25,920 nucleotides of DNA from a virus. Under the pieces are notes generated by a model. It was not told the DNA's origin. It saw only the letters and a list, made by a program, of their open reading frames with translations, and made no database searches. Shown one piece after another: positions 596-19,763 of the stretch; position 1 is the first letter of the stretch; every line of letters begins with the position of its first letter. The stretch lies in UHGV virus genome UHGV-0142838. The stretch is one strand, 5' to 3'. Position numbers and translations under genes: made by a program.

Positions 596-2974
596 TCATA
601 TTTTATTTAAGTTATTCTTTTTTAATGTCATCTCTAGTTCTTCGATACGTCTTTCTATATTATCAATTCTCTCCCAGCATTGCTGAATTGATTTAACAAT
701 AGGTGGGATAAACTCATCGTAACCGAGTGAGTAAACATCATCCCCACCATTTTTCAAGTGATGCTGTAGCCCACCGAACTCAACACCTAATTTTTCACAC
801 AGTTTCAATACGTCCTGTGCAATAAACCAGTGATGGTATCGTTGACGTTTTTTACTGCCGTCAGGAGTTTTCTGCACTACTTCAAGATATTTTTCTTCGA
901 CATTCTCAATAGCTGATATAGTAATTCCATCAACATCTCGTTCTACTTTTTTTGGTACAATTCTTGTCTTTTCAATAACATCAATATAATCATCACGCAT
1001 ATCCCAGCGACCATCGACAGGACGAAGCCCAAGGATAAATTCAATCCCCAGCAAAGTATCTCGGATATCTGTTTTATCACGCGCATCAGATCTGTTTTGC
1101 ACAGTTCCATATACATATGTCGTTGTGGAAGAATTGCCAAGCTGCACCTGATTACTTCCTGACACCCTTGCATCATTGCCAACAGTTGTTGTGTTGGTAA
1201 GTGATGATGTGCTTTCCCCTGATTGAGTTAATCTACCTGAATTATGTCCAATAGCCGTGTTTAATGCGCCGGTTGTATTTGTGACAAGAGAGCCAGACCC
1301 AATTGCAACGTTACTGCTTCCCGATGTTGTTCCTTTTAATGCCTGCTGTCCAACCGCAACATTATTATCACCCGTTGCTGCTATAAGTGCCATGTGACCA
1401 ATAGAAACGGTAAATGAACCTAGCGTTTGAGTTTCACCGCATGCACCATAACCAATTACAACAACATTATCTGTAATTGTTGACTCGGTTGCCGCTCCAG
1501 CACCAATAACAACGCTTTCATTCCCGGCAAGATTCTTGCGCATTGCGAACATTCCAATGCCAACATTATCATGCCCAGTCCCTGTACCTGCTGCCTCCGC
1601 AGCACCAAGACAGTTTCCCGCTCTGTAGCCAACCATGGTGTTATTTGAACCAATAGAGAAGTCTCCGGCAAAAGAGCCTACGTATACACTATTAGACTGA
1701 GAGTAATCTCCAGGATTTCCATTCGCCCGATATCCTACTGCAACTGTATAAATAGTATCTGGAGCCTCAGCCATGGCCTCAAAGCCAACTCCAACGTTAT
1801 ATCTACCGCCCTTAACTTTTTCTCCTGCACCAAGTCCGAAGAATGAGTTATAGCTCCCGGTTGTTAGCCACTCGCCAGCAACAGAACCTACAGCAGTGTT
1901 TCCTGTTCCAGTACATCGATACAAAGTCAGGAAGCCAACTCCGGTATTATTATTTCCTGAAATATTACTCATCAATGATTTTGACCCAATGGCAGTATTG
2001 TTAACACCATCGGTCAGATCCTGTAACGCTCGCGGGCCAAATGCTGTATTATCGTAACCCTTTGGCGCTGTTGTTGGATCTGGTAACTCCGGGGTTAGTT
2101 TTTCACCACCACCACCATTGGCACAAAGATTGTAAGATCGAATAAATTCAGCCACTGGCCCAAGTTTTAAATAACCATTGGCAATATTAATTCTGACACT
2201 TACATTAACTGAGCTACCAGGAGCTTCTATTGTCCTGTCATCAACCCAAGTAAAACTCTGTGGTACCCCGTCATAAGTTAATGTCACATCTCCTTTATCA
2301 TTATAATTATAGAACAATGTATAACGCTCATTTATAGATTCAGAACCTGATGAGCCTCCTCTCCTCCACCACTCTGCATTATCAAAAATAAGTAATCCTG
2401 GACCATAATATTTTCCCTTCTGACCCAAGATCATAGGAGTCGATAATCGCCACCTTCCCTCTGGAACATATACATCGATCCCAGTTCTTTCTGCGTCTTT
2501 AAACGATTCATCACATAATAAAACACCACCTTCAACAGCACCAAATCCACGAACATCACCATTATCTCTCCATCGAGCAATTTGCAACTCAGGATACTTC
2601 TTAGCGCCATCAATGTCTTCTAATTGGTCCCGCAGCTGATCAGGATCATACTTCAGTACATTAGGAAAATAGAACTGCTGAGCACCGTAAGCATCATATA
2701 CAGCCATAGAATGGCCTTGCACAGTTACGAACTTGGCAATCTGTCCGTTATATACAGGGTAACCAGCAGCGTTAAGGATGATTGGTTGTGAAACAGGAAT
2801 GTGAGAACCATCTTCACTCTCTACATAAACCTGAATCTGGTTTTCAGGATTTACCGGGTCAGTGTCAATTTTACCGATATAAATTTTGCCATTAGCTACG
2901 GCTTTAAAAGAGCGAGCCATAGTGAAGAGTTGCGATGGCATCCCAATTACAACATTTGTGGTTATATTAGGCAT
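596..2974 (-). CDS. Tailspike / tail fibre: P22-type N-terminal head-binding domain, glycine-rich repeat central region, C-terminal intramolecular chaperone (peptidase S74-like)
   Basis: ORF track 596..3067. Residues [17 protein letters not shown]...[26 protein letters not shown]...[15 protein letters not shown]...NVLKYDPDQ closely match the P22 gp9 N-terminal domain as I recall it. Central region has repeated N-T-A-I/V-G / G-x-x-A motifs. C-terminus has S-D-A-R-D-K, the S-D-x-x-x-K spacing of the endosialidase/T5 pb1 chaperone family. Start chosen at ATG 2974 (AGGA 8 nt upstream, aligns with P22 MTDITANVV); the longer 3067 start has no SD. Confidence 0.85.
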
Positions 2975-3319
2975 ATTAGTCATCCTGTTTGAAAACTTAG
3001 AAATTGAATAAAAAGGAATGACTGCAGACAAAGATGCAAGTGTTTTGAAAAATAATCTTCTATTCATTTTAAATCATGCAACACAAACAAAACGATTATT
3101 TTACAGCGTGCATGAATCTTGATCAACAGGCATATATTTTAATTGCTGAATACGTCACTTAAAAATGACAAGTACTACTTTTATTCCTATCATCCATGAT
3201 TTTAATTTTCAAATATTATTAAATAACAATTCCTATTTATAATATCTGTCATTTAATTTGCTCCAGATACAAGTAATCGCTGCAGCGTGGCAGCAGTGAA
3301 ACATTATCAATCATACAAC

Positions 3320-3336
3320 AAGACCACCGTGGTCTT
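3320..3336. promoter_or_regulatory. 17-bp perfect palindrome AAGACCAC-C-GTGGTCTT; candidate Mnt operator
   Basis: Seen in sequence: 8-bp arms around a central C, 63 bp upstream of the mnt start. Resembles the 17-bp symmetric P22 mnt operator (core CCACGGTGG) as I recall it. A -35-like TTATTG (3335-3340) and -10-like TAATAA (3358-3363) with 17-bp spacing overlap the right arm; these promoter calls are inference. Confidence 0.5.
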
Positions 3337-3398
3337 ATTGAGGATGCAACCAGCAGATAATAAGATGCCGATCCACTCACAAAAGCGAGGCATCAAGA

Positions 3399-3650
3399 AT
3401 GGGAAGAGATGACCCGCAATTTAATCTGCGGCTACCTTACGAATTAAAGGAAAAACTAAAACAGAGAGCCAAATCCAATGGCCGCTCTCTTAATTCAGAA
3501 TTAGTTCAGATAGTGACTGATGCTGTATCAAAGCCATCCAAAATTTCAGGCTATCGAGACGATGCGGAACGCATCGCTGATGAGCAGTCCGAACTTGTTA
3601 AGAAGATGGTGTTTGATACGCTGAAGGATTTATACAAAAAACCCACCTGA
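3399..3650 (+). CDS. mnt: Mnt-type ribbon-helix-helix repressor (Arc/MetJ superfamily)
   Basis: 83-aa product MGRDDPQFNLRLPYELKEKLKQRAKSNGRSLNSELVQIV...AERIADEQSELVKKMVFDTLKDLYKK matches P22 Mnt in length and along most of its sequence (from memory). Opposite strand to the late genes, as in P22. Confidence 0.9.
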   Translation: MGRDDPQFNLRLPYELKEKLKQRAKSNGRSLNSELVQIVTDAVSKPSKISGYRDDAERIADEQSELVKKMVFDTLKDLYKKPT

Positions 3651-3659
3651 TGGTGGGTT
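3640..3659. terminator. Hairpin terminator between convergent mnt and lipoprotein gene
   Basis: Seen in sequence: AACCCACC-TGAT-GGTGGGTT, perfect 8-bp stem with 4-nt loop. The mnt stop codon TGA is the loop. On the minus strand it is followed by TTTTGTATA, so it is convincing for the 3667-4086 gene; the plus-strand U-tract is weak. Confidence 0.6.
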
Positions 3660-3666
3660 CCATTCA

Positions 3667-4086
3667 TTAGTCTTGCTTTGTGGACGGTATAAGGGATGCA
3701 TTTGCCTCTTTAGGCTTCAAGGTATACATCCCACCATTAAATGGATCTACAGCAAGCCAACCAATTAACCCACCAAACACAAGGTTTCCACCAATATACC
3801 AACCATTAGCATTGGCTTTGATTGGAAGGGTAACTGGTTCGTACCCATCCTTCTCCATAGTGATCTGGTAGCTCTTTTTGCCAAAATAGCTACCATCTGA
3901 CTTGGCGAGTGTTACACCTTGTGGAGTCTTACCTTGCGCAACAATCACACCCGATTCATCTTTTACCTTAAAGGTCGCGCCAGAAGGATTGCTGTTCACC
4001 TGCACAAGTTGCGTTTCATCACCAACAATAGTTGCGCACCCAGATAACATGATAACGCCAGCAACAACGCCGATAATCCTCTTCAT
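3667..4086 (-). CDS. Lipoprotein with PEGA-like domain and glycine-rich hydrophobic C-terminal segment; function unknown (moron)
   Basis: 139-aa ORF. N-terminus MKRIIGVVAGVIMLSGC is a signal peptide with lipobox L-S-G-C. VNSNPSGATFKVKDESG...GKTP fits the PEGA pattern. C-terminal WYIGGNLVFGGLIGWLAVDPFNGG is glycine-zipper-like. Sits where P22 has sieA/hkcC; AT-rich relative to the structural genes. Confidence 0.7.
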   Translation of the reverse strand: MKRIIGVVAGVIMLSGCATIVGDETQLVQVNSNPSGATFKVKDESGVIVAQGKTPQGVTLAKSDGSYFGKKSYQITMEKDGYEPVTLPIKANANGWYIGGNLVFGGLIGWLAVDPFNGGMYTLKPKEANASLIPSTKQD

Positions 4087-4220
4087 ATTACTTTCCGTTT
4101 TGTTAGAATCAGAAAGATCTTAATAATAAAAAGTATTTCCGTGAAGATATTGTCGATTGAGTTAATAACTCATTTACACCCAACAGTGCCATGATGGCAA
4201 AGATAAGGAGAGTTAATCAT

Positions 4221-4706
4221 ATGAAAAAATCACTGTTAATTATCCCGCTTCTGCTGGCAGGGTGTGCAAAGGTTAGCGACTATCAGGCAAGTTGCGAACA
4301 ACGCTATCCAAAGCTTAGCGATATGGCTAATTGCCTTGATGCCAGTGTGAAGAACGACTCACGCATGGCATCTTCACCAATACCTAAGCTGTATGTCCTT
4401 GCTGCAAAGATGCTCGGGCAAGGTGTTGATGAAGGTAAGATAAGTGACGCACAGGCAAGACTTGAGCTTCAGAATCTTTATGTTCAACTACAAAGCCAAG
4501 AACAAGCCCAACAAATAGCGCAAAGCCAAGCATTCCAGCAGGCTTTATTGAATTATCAGGCTGTAAACACAATGCAAGCGATCGAGCAAAAAGCGAGACA
4601 GCCTGTTATAACTCAACCCTATCCAACACGAGTTGACACTTACACAAACTGCAATTCAGGGTTTGGGAATACAGTCACATGCAACAGTAGCAGTAACATC
4701 AGATAA
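4221..4706 (+). CDS. Lipoprotein with cysteine-containing N-terminal part and Q-rich predicted helical region; function unknown (moron)
   Basis: ORF track 4191..4706; start placed at ATG 4221 (AAGGAG at 4205-4210). MKKSLLIIPLLLAGC is a signal peptide with lipobox L-A-G-C. Q/A-rich stretch LELQNLYVQLQSQEQAQQIAQSQAFQQALLNYQAV. Divergent from the 3667-4086 gene; I recognise no family. Confidence 0.65.
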   Translation: MKKSLLIIPLLLAGCAKVSDYQASCEQRYPKLSDMANCLDASVKNDSRMASSPIPKLYVLAAKMLGQGVDEGKISDAQARLELQNLYVQLQSQEQAQQIAQSQAFQQALLNYQAVNTMQAIEQKARQPVITQPYPTRVDTYTNCNSGFGNTVTCNSSSNIR

Positions 4707-4796: not shown

Positions 4797-6794
4797 CTAT
4801 TCTGACAACGCATCAGACTTAGCCCCCTGCGTCAGAGTGTTAATTGCTTTTTGTGCCTGCTGCATTGCTTTCTCAAAGGCTGTTGATCCGCGTGGGGTGT
4901 TTGCCATTCGGAGCATTGCATTTCTGAATGGCTTGCTCTCATAGGCGCGAGTAAGAAGTCCGTAGCTTACTGCTGCGCCAGTTGTCACCGGGTTCATTGC
5001 CGTCCCATACCCAATAATGAACGGGATAGTTTGCTGCCCTGTGGGTGTTGTTACTGCCGCTTTTGCAGCCTGCTGCGTGGATTGCAGGTAGTTTTTTAAT
5101 CCTTTCAGATAAGCAGCGTCCTGCCCCTTAAATGTGATGCCAGTCTGGTTTTGCAGGATGTTAAGCTGCCGAAGGAACTGGTCAGGGGATCCGCCAGATT
5201 TCTCCATCGCCTTTCCAATGATGCCATTGCGCATTTGCGCCCTGCCAACACGACCAACTGAGTTATATAGCGTCTTAATTTCCGATTTGTTCTTGCTGAA
5301 TAGCATGTTGTTGACAACTTCCGGCGTCAGGTCGCCTTTCATGAGAACATTCTTCAGCCTGGTATTCTTTAGTTTCGCCGCTTCGTCAGCGTAGACGGCA
5401 TTGGCCTGCTGATATTTACGGAGAGTATCGTTGCCAAGATTCTGACCAATGGCACCATTGATATCGTCAGTCATTGCCTTGTAAACGCGCTGAATAGCAG
5501 CATCGGAACGGTTTGGTAACACTGGTCGCTCACCCTTCACGTCCATTCTGAACTGGCTGCGCAGGTCGCTTAATTGCTTCAAATCCAGATTTACCGGACC
5601 ATCAGGGCCAGCATTGCGAACAAGCTCATCACGATATGACTGAAGTTTTGAAATTGTCTCGTTATCAGCTACCTTACCAAGCTTCTGCAGATTAGATATC
5701 TCAGTATCAATCTGCTGAATTGCTCGCGCAGGCTGGATATTGACTCCCGCCATTGCATTCTGAACCTGCTCAAGACGGTTCCCTGCGGCACGACGAATTC
5801 CTGATGTTTTCGCTTTAAGGCTGTCAATAACAACCGCTGGATCATACTCACCGAATTTATCGGCAAATCTCTGCACCAACTGGCTTCTCGCTTCCTGTTG
5901 CGTTGCTCTCATTCCGCTTGTGCCAGCCAGAGGGATATTTTCTGCTGTAGTCTGCGCCATTTTTCCGACGCGGGAAGTGGGTTGTAACAGGTCTGTGGTG
6001 TGCAGAGGAACTCCTTCACGCTCTGCAAATCTGATAGCCTGCTGCGCTTCTGGCGCAATAGCACCACTAACGCCACGATAAGCAGCACCTAATCCACGTC
6101 CAGCAGCGTTAATAGCGCCGCCTGCCAGAACGCCAACACCTAAATCGGTGGCGAGGGCTTCCGCATCATCTTTCGCACTATTTGCAGCAAGTGACCCGAC
6201 TGCGTTTTCAGCGAGAAGGCGAGTTGCACCCTGAGCGATTCTACCAGCTAGTGTTGGTGCCTGTGCCGCCGCTCTCTCAACGCCAGCAGGAGTGAGGTAA
6301 GGCAATGCTTCAGCAAATACCCTTCCCTCTGTCGTTTGTGGAGTCAGCGCGCCTTGCTGAAGGCCAAAGTCCTGCTCTAATCCCTGCGTTGTTACTCGTG
6401 GCGCTGGTTGATATGTACCATCGCCAATGCCGAGTTTACCGCCAGCCCAAGCCGCCGCGCTTGTTACAGCATCGGCAACTGATGCGGGTATGTTTGCCAC
6501 GTTCACGCCAGCCTGCGCCAGTCCGCGACCAGTCTCTTTTACTGCTTCGCCAAGATCAGACATAAATCCACTTTGCTGTGGTTGTTGCTGTGCTACTGGT
6601 TGCTGTGTCTCCACTTGCTGCGCAGATGGCAATGGATAGGCAGCATAGAAAGCTTGCTTGGCCTGCTCTGCATTTTCTCCGGCTTGCGGGGCAACGACTT
6701 CATTGAAGTATTGCTCCTGAGCCTGCGCTTTTTGTTCTGGTGCTAACGCCTGATACTGTGGAGAGGCGATAACATCTTTCCATGCTTTAGCCAT
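4797..6794 (-). CDS. Ejection (DNA-injection) protein, P22 gp16 / Sf6 gp13 position
   Basis: 665-aa ORF, last of three genes after the gp14-like gene, as in the P22 order 14-7-20-16. Start overlaps the upstream stop. Assigned mainly by synteny and size. Confidence 0.7.
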   Translation of the reverse strand: MAKAWKDVIASPQYQALAPEQKAQAQEQYFNEVVAPQAGENAEQAKQAFYAAYPLPSAQQVETQQPVAQQQPQQSGFMSDLGEAVKETGRGLAQAGVNVANIPASVADAVTSAAAWAGGKLGIGDGTYQPAPRVTTQGLEQDFGLQQGALTPQTTEGRVFAEALPYLTPAGVERAAAQAPTLAGRIAQGATRLLAENAVGSLAANSAKDDAEALATDLGVGVLAGGAINAAGRGLGAAYRGVSGAIAPEAQQAIRFAEREGVPLHTTDLLQPTSRVGKMAQTTAENIPLAGTSGMRATQQEARSQLVQRFADKFGEYDPAVVIDSLKAKTSGIRRAAGNRLEQVQNAMAGVNIQPARAIQQIDTEISNLQKLGKVADNETISKLQSYRDELVRNAGPDGPVNLDLKQLSDLRSQFRMDVKGERPVLPNRSDAAIQRVYKAMTDDINGAIGQNLGNDTLRKYQQANAVYADEAAKLKNTRLKNVLMKGDLTPEVVNNMLFSKNKSEIKTLYNSVGRVGRAQMRNGIIGKAMEKSGGSPDQFLRQLNILQNQTGITFKGQDAAYLKGLKNYLQSTQQAAKAAVTTPTGQQTIPFIIGYGTAMNPVTTGAAVSYGLLTRAYESKPFRNAMLRMANTPRGSTAFEKAMQQAQKAINTLTQGAKSDALSE

Positions 6795-8089
6795 TAATCA
6801 CCCCATAGTGAAGAAAAGTTACTGCCAGTAGTAGATTGTTGCCCTGGCATATTCTGTACTGGCTCCTGATAATCAAACTGTTTTTTAACAGTGCTCAACT
6901 TGCTTTCAAGCTGATTTCTAATCTTTCCGATAGAGTCACGAAAAGCCTTTTCACTCATTTTGGGGCTTAGGGCACCAACCGCATCGGATAATTTTTTACC
7001 CTCAGCATCTGAAAGAGCGCCCATTCCCTTCAGGGACTGCACCATAGGAAGGAATGTTTGAGCTTTAAAGGTGTCGAGCCTTGCTTCAAAGTTAGCCGCA
7101 TCAGAGCCAGGAACTGTCGGAAACGCTGAGCGAATTCCTACTGCTTTTGAAAGGCCGGGGCTTTGCTCTATCTCGTTGAGAGAATCAAGCGCGGTGCTGA
7201 ACGTATCAACTGCACCCTGAGCGGCGGCCTGCCTGTCAGCGCGGGCTATGTCAGCCTTTTGCCGAACATCTGCCTGTTTCTGTTTTAGCTCTTCAAGCTT
7301 TAACTGATTGCTTTCTCTGGCTATCTGTCTGTCCAGAGCCTTTTCTTGTAATTCTGCTCTTTGTATTTCGCGGGAAAGAGCAGCATTCTGTGCGCTGATG
7401 TTCTGTCCACGTATCTGGATGTCCTGACCACGCGCTGTTAGTGCTTCTCCAGCCTGATTGCTGCGGATTGTCTCTGCCAGTCTGCCTCGGTCAATCTCAC
7501 GACCAGCCATCTTGTCCTGAACATTGAAGTAGTCAATCGGACCGAGAGCAGCCATCCCAAGGTGATCAACAAACTCACCAAATCCTGAAGGGTTTTGCTG
7601 ATACATCTGAGCAACGCTGTTAGGGTCAACACCGACGCGAGTCAGTTCCTTGGCGTTGTTTTGCAGCCATGATTGCATTGCTTCTGGAGACGATGACGCA
7701 AGGCGTGCGCCAGCCGCTAAGGTGCCGATAGAATTACGCTGCTCTTCATCAATGAATCCCATGCCTTTACGAACGGATTCAATCTGGTCTGGATATTGAG
7801 TAGCCAACTGACGCAAAGCACCGCGATCACCAGACGCATAAGCATTAGCGTATGCCTGCTGAAATTCTTTCTGCCGCTGAGCCTGCTTTTCCTGCTGAAA
7901 CACCCCTGCAATACCTGAAAGGCCTTGCAAAGCAGTCAGCCCAACATTGTTAGCGCCTGAACGCTCAATATCATTGTTCTGCCTGATAAGCTGAAGCGTA
8001 TTGCCGATGTCATTTACGCTCGGAGCGTTTGAGTTGACGCCGCCGATACCAGCCAACAATCCGCCGTTTGTTCCTTGCCAAGTAGCCAT
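6794..8089 (-). CDS. Ejection protein, P22 gp20 / Sf6 gp12 position
   Basis: 431-aa ORF; synteny within the P22-like ejection cluster; coiled-coil-like central region. Confidence 0.7.
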   Translation of the reverse strand: MATWQGTNGGLLAGIGGVNSNAPSVNDIGNTLQLIRQNNDIERSGANNVGLTALQGLSGIAGVFQQEKQAQRQKEFQQAYANAYASGDRGALRQLATQYPDQIESVRKGMGFIDEEQRNSIGTLAAGARLASSSPEAMQSWLQNNAKELTRVGVDPNSVAQMYQQNPSGFGEFVDHLGMAALGPIDYFNVQDKMAGREIDRGRLAETIRSNQAGEALTARGQDIQIRGQNISAQNAALSREIQRAELQEKALDRQIARESNQLKLEELKQKQADVRQKADIARADRQAAAQGAVDTFSTALDSLNEIEQSPGLSKAVGIRSAFPTVPGSDAANFEARLDTFKAQTFLPMVQSLKGMGALSDAEGKKLSDAVGALSPKMSEKAFRDSIGKIRNQLESKLSTVKKQFDYQEPVQNMPGQQSTTGSNFSSLWGD

Positions 8090-11377: not shown

Positions 11378-11839
11378 TCACGTACTCGGATCATCTTTCT
11401 CGATGTAAAACCGATTCCACGTAAACGCGCTTTTGTTACCACTACCGCGAGGCATGTCATTTCTCCGCTCAAGTGGTGGTATTTTGGTTAAAGCGATACA
11501 GATTGTCTGATATGCACTGTCAGCAGCGGTAAGGAGAGCGTCTGACGGCTGAATGACGTTATCCATGCACACTTGCACAGCGAGTTTCAAAGCGACGCCA
11601 TCATTTGCCCATGCAGGGATACCTGAATCATCGTCAGGTAACGGCATGATGCCGTTTTCTGTATCAGCAAACTGATACCCAAGCTCGATACCTTTTGCCT
11701 GCCATGCTGCCATCATGTCTTCGAGGTCATTAATGGCATCTTCAATTGCCTGAGGGTCAGCATCTGTCAACGTGGCATTGGAATACAGCCCGGCTTTTCG
11801 TAAAGCCTTAAGAACGAGATCACCCTTCGTTTTCGCCAT
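11378..11839 (-). CDS. Head-to-tail adaptor, P22 gp4-like
   Basis: 153-aa ORF immediately downstream of the coat region and upstream of the gp10-like gene; synteny with P22/Sf6. Confidence 0.75.
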   Translation of the reverse strand: MAKTKGDLVLKALRKAGLYSNATLTDADPQAIEDAINDLEDMMAAWQAKGIELGYQFADTENGIMPLPDDDSGIPAWANDGVALKLAVQVCMDNVIQPSDALLTAADSAYQTICIALTKIPPLERRNDMPRGSGNKSAFTWNRFYIEKDDPST

Positions 11840-19074: not shown

Positions 19075-19611
19075 TTAATTAGTGAGTCCGGGGATTACGG
19101 TTTGCCCGTGCTGTTCAAGGCGTTCAATTCTCGCCAGTAGCTGAGGCTTCTTAATTTTTCCCCAGCGATTGAGCAGGCGGCCAGACATACTGGCGACATC
19201 CTTCTCTTTCATATACTCCAGCATTATGGCGTTGCGTTCTGCTTCATAACTTTCGCTGTACTTACGGAGTTCTGCAGACATCCAGTTAAAGGCATTTATA
19301 TAGGCCTCTTTAACAGCGTCGGCTTTTGCGCCATTAAATCCCATGACCAGCATAACGAAGCCACTAAAGTCCATGCGGTAGTAAATCTGTTTCTTGTCAA
19401 AAATCCCTAAGTCATTGATTTTTTCGGCAACGCAAAAATGCGCTCTCCGGAAATCTTCAGAGCAATGACAATTTTTCAGCGCCCTCAATACGTCCGCATG
19501 ACGCTTACCAAATGCCTTTGCGATCTGGAAGGTGTCAGTTACCGGTTGACCTTCTGCTGCGGTAACTAACTGGCGAAAGTCAAAGTCATGATTCACAATT
19601 AATTCATTCAT
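19075..19611 (-). CDS. rha: Phage regulatory protein Rha-like
   Basis: ORF track 19075..19680 uses a GTG start; first ATG at 19611 gives MNELIVNHDFDFRQLVTAAEGQPVTDTFQIAKAFGKRHADVLRALKN, typical of the Rha N-terminal domain. Sits between lysis genes and terminase as in P22. Start uncertain. Confidence 0.7.
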   Translation of the reverse strand: MNELIVNHDFDFRQLVTAAEGQPVTDTFQIAKAFGKRHADVLRALKNCHCSEDFRRAHFCVAEKINDLGIFDKKQIYYRMDFSGFVMLVMGFNGAKADAVKEAYINAFNWMSAELRKYSESYEAERNAIMLEYMKEKDVASMSGRLLNRWGKIKKPQLLARIERLEQHGQTVIPGLTN

Positions 19612-19763
19612 GGCGTTACCTGCTACTTCGAAATGAACCTTTGCCGCACAGGAAACCAGCCCACCGAGGCTCGCCAGCACTAACTGGTATCCTCAAAGGC
19701 CCATTCCAAAGGGTCAGGTTCGGTGGTTATTGTGCGCTGCGGTGCGCGGTGAAATACCTATAC

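Follow-up and report, generated by a model that had tools for sequence, protein, structure and literature searches.

In the immI region of P22 and epsilon34, mnt lies between the gene 16 homologue and the tailspike gene, and a complete immI comprises mnt, arc, sar and ant. By alignment, and in agreement with the annotation of epsilon34, the Mnt operator of P22 covers the start of Pant (TTGACA-17-TATATT), which carries the arc operator in its spacer. P22 Mnt is not known to repress Pmnt and instead frees it from competition with Pant, and P22 gene 9 is expressed mainly through antiterminated read-through from the late operon.

A reduced arrangement, in which mnt is found without arc or ant, has been published for phage L, ST64T and ST104 (PMC2629481, PMC8022706). 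Villafane et al. (2008) described the 'ant morons' of ST64T, ST104 and Para1 as mnt alone together with one gene without an assigned function (PMC2629481). In annotated genomes, mnt adjoins the tailspike gene in ST160, Gally, vB_EcoP-720R6 (720R6), JEP4 and phage L, and the match table places SE1 with them. In ST64T, ST104, L, SE1, ST160, Gally and 720R6, mnt is divergent from the adjoining tailspike gene, arc and ant are missing and one or two unrelated small genes are present.

The stretch of DNA analysed here (UHGV-0142838, 25,920 nt; the window) covers the late region of a P22-like phage or prophage of Escherichia coli (a Lederbergvirus of the CUS-3/720R6 type), and 720R6 is 96.5% identical to it over 65% of the window length. 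The genes for two ejection proteins (6794–8089 and 4797–6794, the latter the gene 16 homologue) and the tailspike gene are on the minus strand. Between the gene 16 homologue and the tailspike gene are mnt (3399–3650, plus strand) and two lipoprotein-like ORFs, with neither arc nor ant. The locus, which in this Lederbergvirus takes the mnt-only form of the P22-family immI ('ant moron'), has a layout that is already known. Our additions are modest and concern selection on the orphan cassette, a decayed Pant, the pairing of Gln6 in Mnt with AGACCAC in the operator, and a relic tailspike start accompanied by an AT-rich, promoter-like leader.

The two lipoprotein-like ORFs (3667–4086, minus strand; 4191–4706, plus strand) lie between mnt and the gene 16 homologue, where they make up the remainder of the 'ant moron' and occupy the position of sieA in P22. 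One member of the pair belongs to phrog_6823, is a homologue of epsilon34 gp15 and has a weak PEGA match, and the other belongs to phrog_6067 and contains the lipobox LLAGC. A role for the pair in exclusion or conversion is possible. A predicted bidirectional hairpin terminator (3640–3659, both strands; −15.6 kcal/mol, z = −3.0, U-run on the minus strand) overlaps the mnt stop codon and would serve both mnt on the plus strand and the convergent lipoprotein gene on the minus strand. A terminator also overlaps the 3′ end of mnt in the P22 and epsilon34 immI, and counterparts of the 3640–3659 terminator are annotated in epsilon34 and phage L.

The mnt gene encodes an 83 aa protein, in which an N-terminal ribbon-helix-helix domain is followed by a C-terminal tetramerisation helix, and is preceded by a Shine-Dalgarno sequence, GAGG, at 3387–3390. 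The protein matches the Pfam families Arc (PF03869, 2.8e-22) and Repressor_Mnt (PF11423, 2.2e-18, residues 53–80), as well as the structures of the N-terminal domain (PDB 1MNT, 2.8e-34 over residues 3–77) and the tetramerisation domain of Mnt (PDB 1QEY, 3.1e-12, 28/31 residues identical). It shares 76% identity with P22 Mnt, in which residue 6 is His instead of Gln. With both Mnt domains present in a single 83 aa ORF, the full-length Mnt homologue reported in the original prediction is confirmed. The same protein is found in Gally and 720R6 and is the commonest allele among orphan copies (39/68), whereas the Mnt of the L/ST64T type has a different C-terminal part and shares 70% identity with it. 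PHROGs (phrog_795) and the RefSeq records NC_014900, NC_011802 and NC_011976 label Mnt as a 'partition protein ATPase', which is a propagated mis-annotation of an 83 aa ribbon-helix-helix repressor.

P22 Arc belongs to the same fold family (Pfam Arc, 44% identity to the window Mnt over the ribbon-helix-helix domain), and shares the Gln/Asn/Arg beta-strand pattern seen in the window protein (PQFNLR). Arc differs in being 53 aa long and in having no tetramerisation helix, and its operator sits between the Pant hexamers. In P22 the arc gene is on the ant side, and it has no counterpart in the window. When P22 Arc was used as a tblastn query, the sole match was the ribbon-helix-helix domain of mnt itself, and P22 Ant returned nothing in the 25.9 kb window. 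No Rfam match, sar included, was found in 2500–4300, and two intergenic ORFs (34 and 43 codons) had no Pfam match. The ORF lists agree, so arc and ant are missing, as had been claimed, and sar is absent too. However, the accompanying statement that only fragments under 30 codons were present was inexact, as the spacer between mnt and the tailspike gene contains ORFs of 34, 41 and 43 codons. The sole Rha-family ORF (19075–19680) was considered and set aside, as it occupies the usual P22 rha position and has no operator nearby.

Both arc and ant were absent from all 64 IMG/VR loci with an Mnt at least 92% identical to that of the window, whereas all 16 loci with a 77–80% identical Mnt, which is of the His6 type, contained ant plus arc or an arc-like gene. 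Of 5426 complete E. coli genomes, 112 had the leader, operator and mnt in one uninterrupted run. A scan of genome contigs with Mnt yielded no confirmed locus.

The predicted Mnt operator, AAGACCAC-C-GTGGTCTT, is a 17 bp perfect palindrome at 3320–3336 that ends 62 nt before the mnt ATG. It occupies the homologous place and register to the 17 bp palindromic operator of P22 and is identical to it at 13 of 17 positions, differing at positions 2, 4, 14 and 16 (AGGTCC to AAGACC). This bears out the original description of a P22-like perfect palindrome about 60 bp upstream of mnt. The window contains two perfect 8-N-8 palindromes, the operator among them, where 0.3 would be expected; the other, AACGGCATGATGCCGTT, is at 11640–11656 within a virion-gene ORF. 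Across 40 haplotypes, the half-sites GACCAC and GTGGTC are nearly invariant, with changes seen only as singletons or doubletons, and the centre base is free, taking all four bases. The operator pattern has a single match in the window at up to three mismatches (0.02 expected), and the complete genomes of Gally and ST160 yielded no second operator when up to two mismatches were allowed. Thus, the only target of Mnt in cis would be its own promoter region.

Promoters around the operator were scored with a crude position weight matrix (PWM), which a weak promoter could escape; the background median is 5.1, with 90th and 99th percentiles of 8.4 and 11.3. On the plus strand, the predicted Pmnt (3338–3366; TTGAGG-17-TAAGAT) is in the same register and has the same 17 nt spacing as P22 Pmnt (TTGAGA-17-TATCAT). 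It scores 11.3, at the 99th percentile of the background, compared with 13.9 for P22 Pmnt, and its position is consistent with the Pmnt/Pant feature annotated in epsilon34. In both the window and P22, a single base lies between the operator and the −35 hexamer of Pmnt. As the operator is itself conserved and precedes the −35 of a conserved mnt promoter in this way, the earlier idea that Mnt may autoregulate fits these data. With Pant gone, the behaviour of P22 Mnt at Pmnt gives no prediction for Mnt bound at about −45.

On the minus strand, little remains of Pant. Hand alignment to P22 and to an ES18-like locus that retains arc and ant (L142, see below) identified a degenerate remnant at 3344–3372, TCGGCA-16-TTGCAT, with TCGGCA at the −35 position where arc-ant modules have TTGACA, and with TTGCAT in place of the −10. 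The same remnant is found in the other E. coli orphans, and Salmonella orphans have TTGTAT instead of TTGCAT; none has the arc operator. Scored by hand with the same matrix, the hexamers at the Pant position in the window reach about 1. Around the operator, no minus-strand site exceeds 6.7 in the window or 5.2 in Gally and ST160, and a consensus scan detected no promoter on that strand there. The corresponding scores are 16.3 for P22 Pant and 12.1–12.8 for the three independent arc-ant modules L089, L142 and N7, which keep a perfect TTGACA. The strong Pant, with its start under the Mnt operator, that belongs to a complete immI is therefore missing from the window, as judged from sequence.

These scores bear on the proposal made in the original prediction, in which a promoter equivalent to Pant lies over the operator and reads into the tailspike gene, and Mnt is retained in order to keep tailspike expression off in the lysogen. 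The operator does lie between mnt and the tailspike gene in the P22 orientation, a conserved operator needs some function in cis, and weak −10-like hexamers (TATTAT/TATGAT) are present on the minus strand. In loci with a short spacer, the gap between the operator and the tailspike Shine-Dalgarno sequence is only about 45–60 bp. However, minus-strand scores of 5.2–6.7 are close to the background median, and the TTGACA and −10 positions of Pant have been mutated in both orphan lineages. In the window, moreover, about 350 bp lie between the operator and the true tailspike start, and they include a relic start, a short ORF upstream of the gene and a 268 bp leader. This comparison supports neither the promoter nor the silencing, and we regard control of the tailspike by Mnt from such a promoter as very unlikely.

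The tailspike gene (596–2974, minus strand) encodes 792 aa, with a P22-type head-binding domain and a different receptor-binding part. The ORF is open to 3067 (823 codons), and the Head_binding domain begins at residue 31 of this longer frame. At 2974, MPNITTNVV aligns with the MTDITANVV of P22, AGGA is found 8 nt upstream of the ATG, and the tailspike annotated by PGAP in the near-identical prophage of E. coli ZH063 is 792 aa. The distance between mnt and the tailspike gene, previously put at about 330 bp from a start at 3067, is therefore 424 bp (2975–3398). We do not claim the 28-codon in-frame extension (2984–3067, minus strand) as coding sequence: it has no Shine-Dalgarno sequence, shows five synonymous against five non-synonymous changes and is probably non-coding. 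It resembles a twin-arginine signal motif, is open in 11/11 loci with the leader and is treated as coding in the annotation of JEP4.

The 424 bp spacer is composite. Next to mnt is the segment with the operator, the mnt promoter and the Shine-Dalgarno sequence (3320–3398), and beyond it are a relic P22-type tailspike start and a leader of 26% GC. The relic (3202–3300, minus strand) was identified by alignment to P22, 720R6, JEP4 and a locus with the full ant-arc-mnt set (L086). It consists of a hairpin (3296–3280), a Shine-Dalgarno sequence, GGAG (3264–3261), and ATG ACA GAT AT (3252–3242). It opens a 16-codon ORF that ends at 3202, and the true start is 278 bp further on. What is the tailspike start in the mnt-only phages ST64T, ST104, L, SE1, ST160, Gally and 720R6, where its ATG is 135–146 bp from mnt, is only a 4-codon relic in the window, and JEP4 and some 20 E. 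coli genomes share this condition. From these alignments, the relic appears to be a scar left when the tailspike cassette was replaced. The hairpin of the tailspike leader has 7 bp, is 95.7% paired over 20 haplotypes and shows CG-to-UA compensatory changes; the relic copy in the window (3280–3296) has a U-U mismatch, and the hairpin is deleted in seven loci.

The AT-rich leader (2975–3242, minus strand; 268 bp) has a GC content of 26%, compared with an average of 48% for the window, and travels with the N-terminus of the tailspike. It was found below the same mnt (L053), below another mnt type (JEP4) and below the full ant-arc-mnt set (L086). JEP4 was its sole carrier among 50,697 phage records, and about 20 E. 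coli genomes also have it. The only strong minus-strand promoter candidate is in this leader, TTGATC-17-TAAAAT at 3126–3098, with a PWM score of 13.5. In 11 loci the two hexamers are invariant and the spacer is variable, and the element is 200 bp from the operator with no half-site near it. It is a candidate for a tailspike promoter that would act independently of Mnt. A plus-strand ORF of 24–28 aa in the AT-rich leader has no Shine-Dalgarno sequence, and we do not claim it as a protein.

Among the IMG/VR loci that lack arc and ant, the distance from the tailspike start to mnt falls into two classes, a short class of 136–147 bp and a long class of about 415 bp. The corresponding part of P22 (L005) contains a direct repeat, GC[AG]TGGCTACGGTGAATTTT, at 1948–1967 and 2058–2077, and its two copies enclose about 110 bp of the interval from t_ant to gene 9. 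In L086 and epsilon34-like loci, a single copy of GC[AG]TGGCTACGGTGAATTTT is joined directly to t_ant, and this comparison suggests repeat-mediated deletion or insertion in a hot spot between t_ant and gene 9. The window has no t_ant.

The position of the operator also allows a role during lytic growth, in which operator-bound Mnt, convergent transcription from Pmnt, or both, tune late read-through into the tailspike gene as a roadblock or by interference. Villafane et al. speculated that Mnt and Arc affect read-through of the late transcript into gene 9 (PMC2629481). The operator and Pmnt are in the path of late transcription, just past the terminator, and the tailspike leader contains a conserved hairpin. 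However, loci of the long class, to which the window belongs, have the promoter-like tailspike leader and yet mostly retain an intact mnt, and Sf6 and HK620 are without mnt (PMC2629481). We consider such tuning an improbable reason for the persistence of mnt.

The phage L authors raised the possibility that mnt is a remnant (PMC8022706), and here mnt and the operator would be left over from a deleted immI, functionless and slowly decaying. The loss of Pant is in keeping with this, as are two of the 68 orphan copies, in the long-class loci L065 and L070 (mnt at 4001–4249), which carry a nonsense codon (R53*) and a change at Pro13. In L065 an operator half-site is also mutated (GTGATC). These two are instances of cassette decay. 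Consistent with a remnant too, and counting against an Mnt that is made in the lysogen, mnt transcripts were not detected in lysogens of Kapi1, which has mnt-arc-ant (PMC12922286).

Against this, mnt is intact and full-length in the other 66 orphan copies. The E. coli lineage (window and Gally) and Salmonella ST160, both orphans, have diverged to a dS of about 0.5, and dN/dS between them is 0.09 (Sd 21, Nd 9). None of the 16 non-centre bases of the operator differs between the window and ST160, and only the centre has changed, compared with a pS of 0.37 (P = 6e-4). The stretch from the operator to the ATG differs at 9 of 62 bases (P = 7e-5 against the same pS). Conservation of the operator did not significantly exceed that of the promoter beside it (P = 0.08), but both have changed far less than synonymous sites. 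The cassette has also persisted beside many different tailspikes and moron genes. The substitution pattern indicates that the orphan cassette is maintained and is not decaying, and a neutral remnant is accordingly an unlikely explanation.

The four operator changes, at positions 2, 4, 14 and 16, and Gln6 in place of His6 make it likely that the binding specificity of the window Mnt differs from that of P22 Mnt. Phage L lysogens are classically reported to confer no immI immunity against P22, which fits a differing specificity. The AGACCAC operator and the Gln6 N-terminus are shared by the mnt-only phages ST64T, ST104, L, SE1, ST160, Gally and 720R6, and P22-type His6 proteins pair with GGTCCAC. 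When IMG/VR was searched for exact AGACCACNGTGGTCT, a search that is conditioned on the operator, at least 120 loci were returned, many of them probably by chance. Among the matches listed, an Mnt homologue adjoins the site in 47, all of which, close copies included, appear to be of the Gln6 type. Twelve divergent operator-adjacent homologues among those matches were read (38–76% identity, different C-termini), and all 12 had Gln6 (DPQF). Specificity must depend on more than residue 6, as Gln6 is combined with another operator in phage N7.

Possible targets in trans with the operator of the window do exist. The ES18-like siphovirus loci L089, L142 and L153 have the exact AGACCACCGTGGTCT operator between divergent promoters, together with a Gln6 Mnt-like protein. 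Unlike the window, they have kept a Pant-like promoter with TTGACA, arc and an ant whose product is 53–66% identical to P22 Ant, and their Mnt is only 57–59% identical to that of the window, with another C-terminus. These modules are possible targets in trans for the Mnt of the window. Modules of the same specificity are rare, with six IMG/VR contigs, all metagenomic, and none detected in the 5426 E. coli genomes at megablast sensitivity. SPN3UB and N7 were rejected as further examples when their operators turned out to be different.

The identity and architecture of the locus are near certain; the functional part of our interpretation is much less so. The reading that we favour, and hold to be somewhat probable, is that Mnt is expressed by the prophage and autoregulates at a single operator, that arc, ant and Pant have been lost, that the tailspike is outside Mnt control, and that mnt has been retained through repression in trans. 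Mnt would be made from Pmnt in the lysogen, would bind the palindrome as a tetramer and would regulate its own promoter region, either positively or negatively, as its sole target in cis. As expected from P22, the tailspike gene would be transcribed by antiterminated read-through of the late operon, perhaps with a contribution from the promoter-like element in its leader. In trans, Mnt may silence Pant-type promoters with AGACCAC operators on incoming or co-resident phages, which would shield the prophage repressor from a foreign antirepressor. Antirepressor crosstalk between prophages was reportedly found by Lemire et al. in 2011 and would be a precedent for trans action. Action in trans seems to us the most plausible explanation for the retention of mnt.

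A related but doubtful alternative is that the cassette has become a selected, stand-alone 'anti-antirepressor' immunity gene of a distinct class (Gln6, AGACCAC) that has no antirepressor of its own, or has acquired some other regulatory role. The conservation of its own operator counts against an Mnt whose job is only in trans, because such an Mnt would not need it.

Whichever reading is correct, the puzzle is that a repressor and its operator are under strong purifying selection although the only known target has gone. Many prophages of E. coli and Salmonella keep the orphan cassette, among them the prophages of clinical ST131-type strains. Should Mnt block foreign antirepressors, it would represent a small, common and overlooked layer of conflict between prophages. 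If it merely autoregulates, the cassette would be an example of regulatory modules outliving their targets. Under either outcome, current understanding would be little changed.
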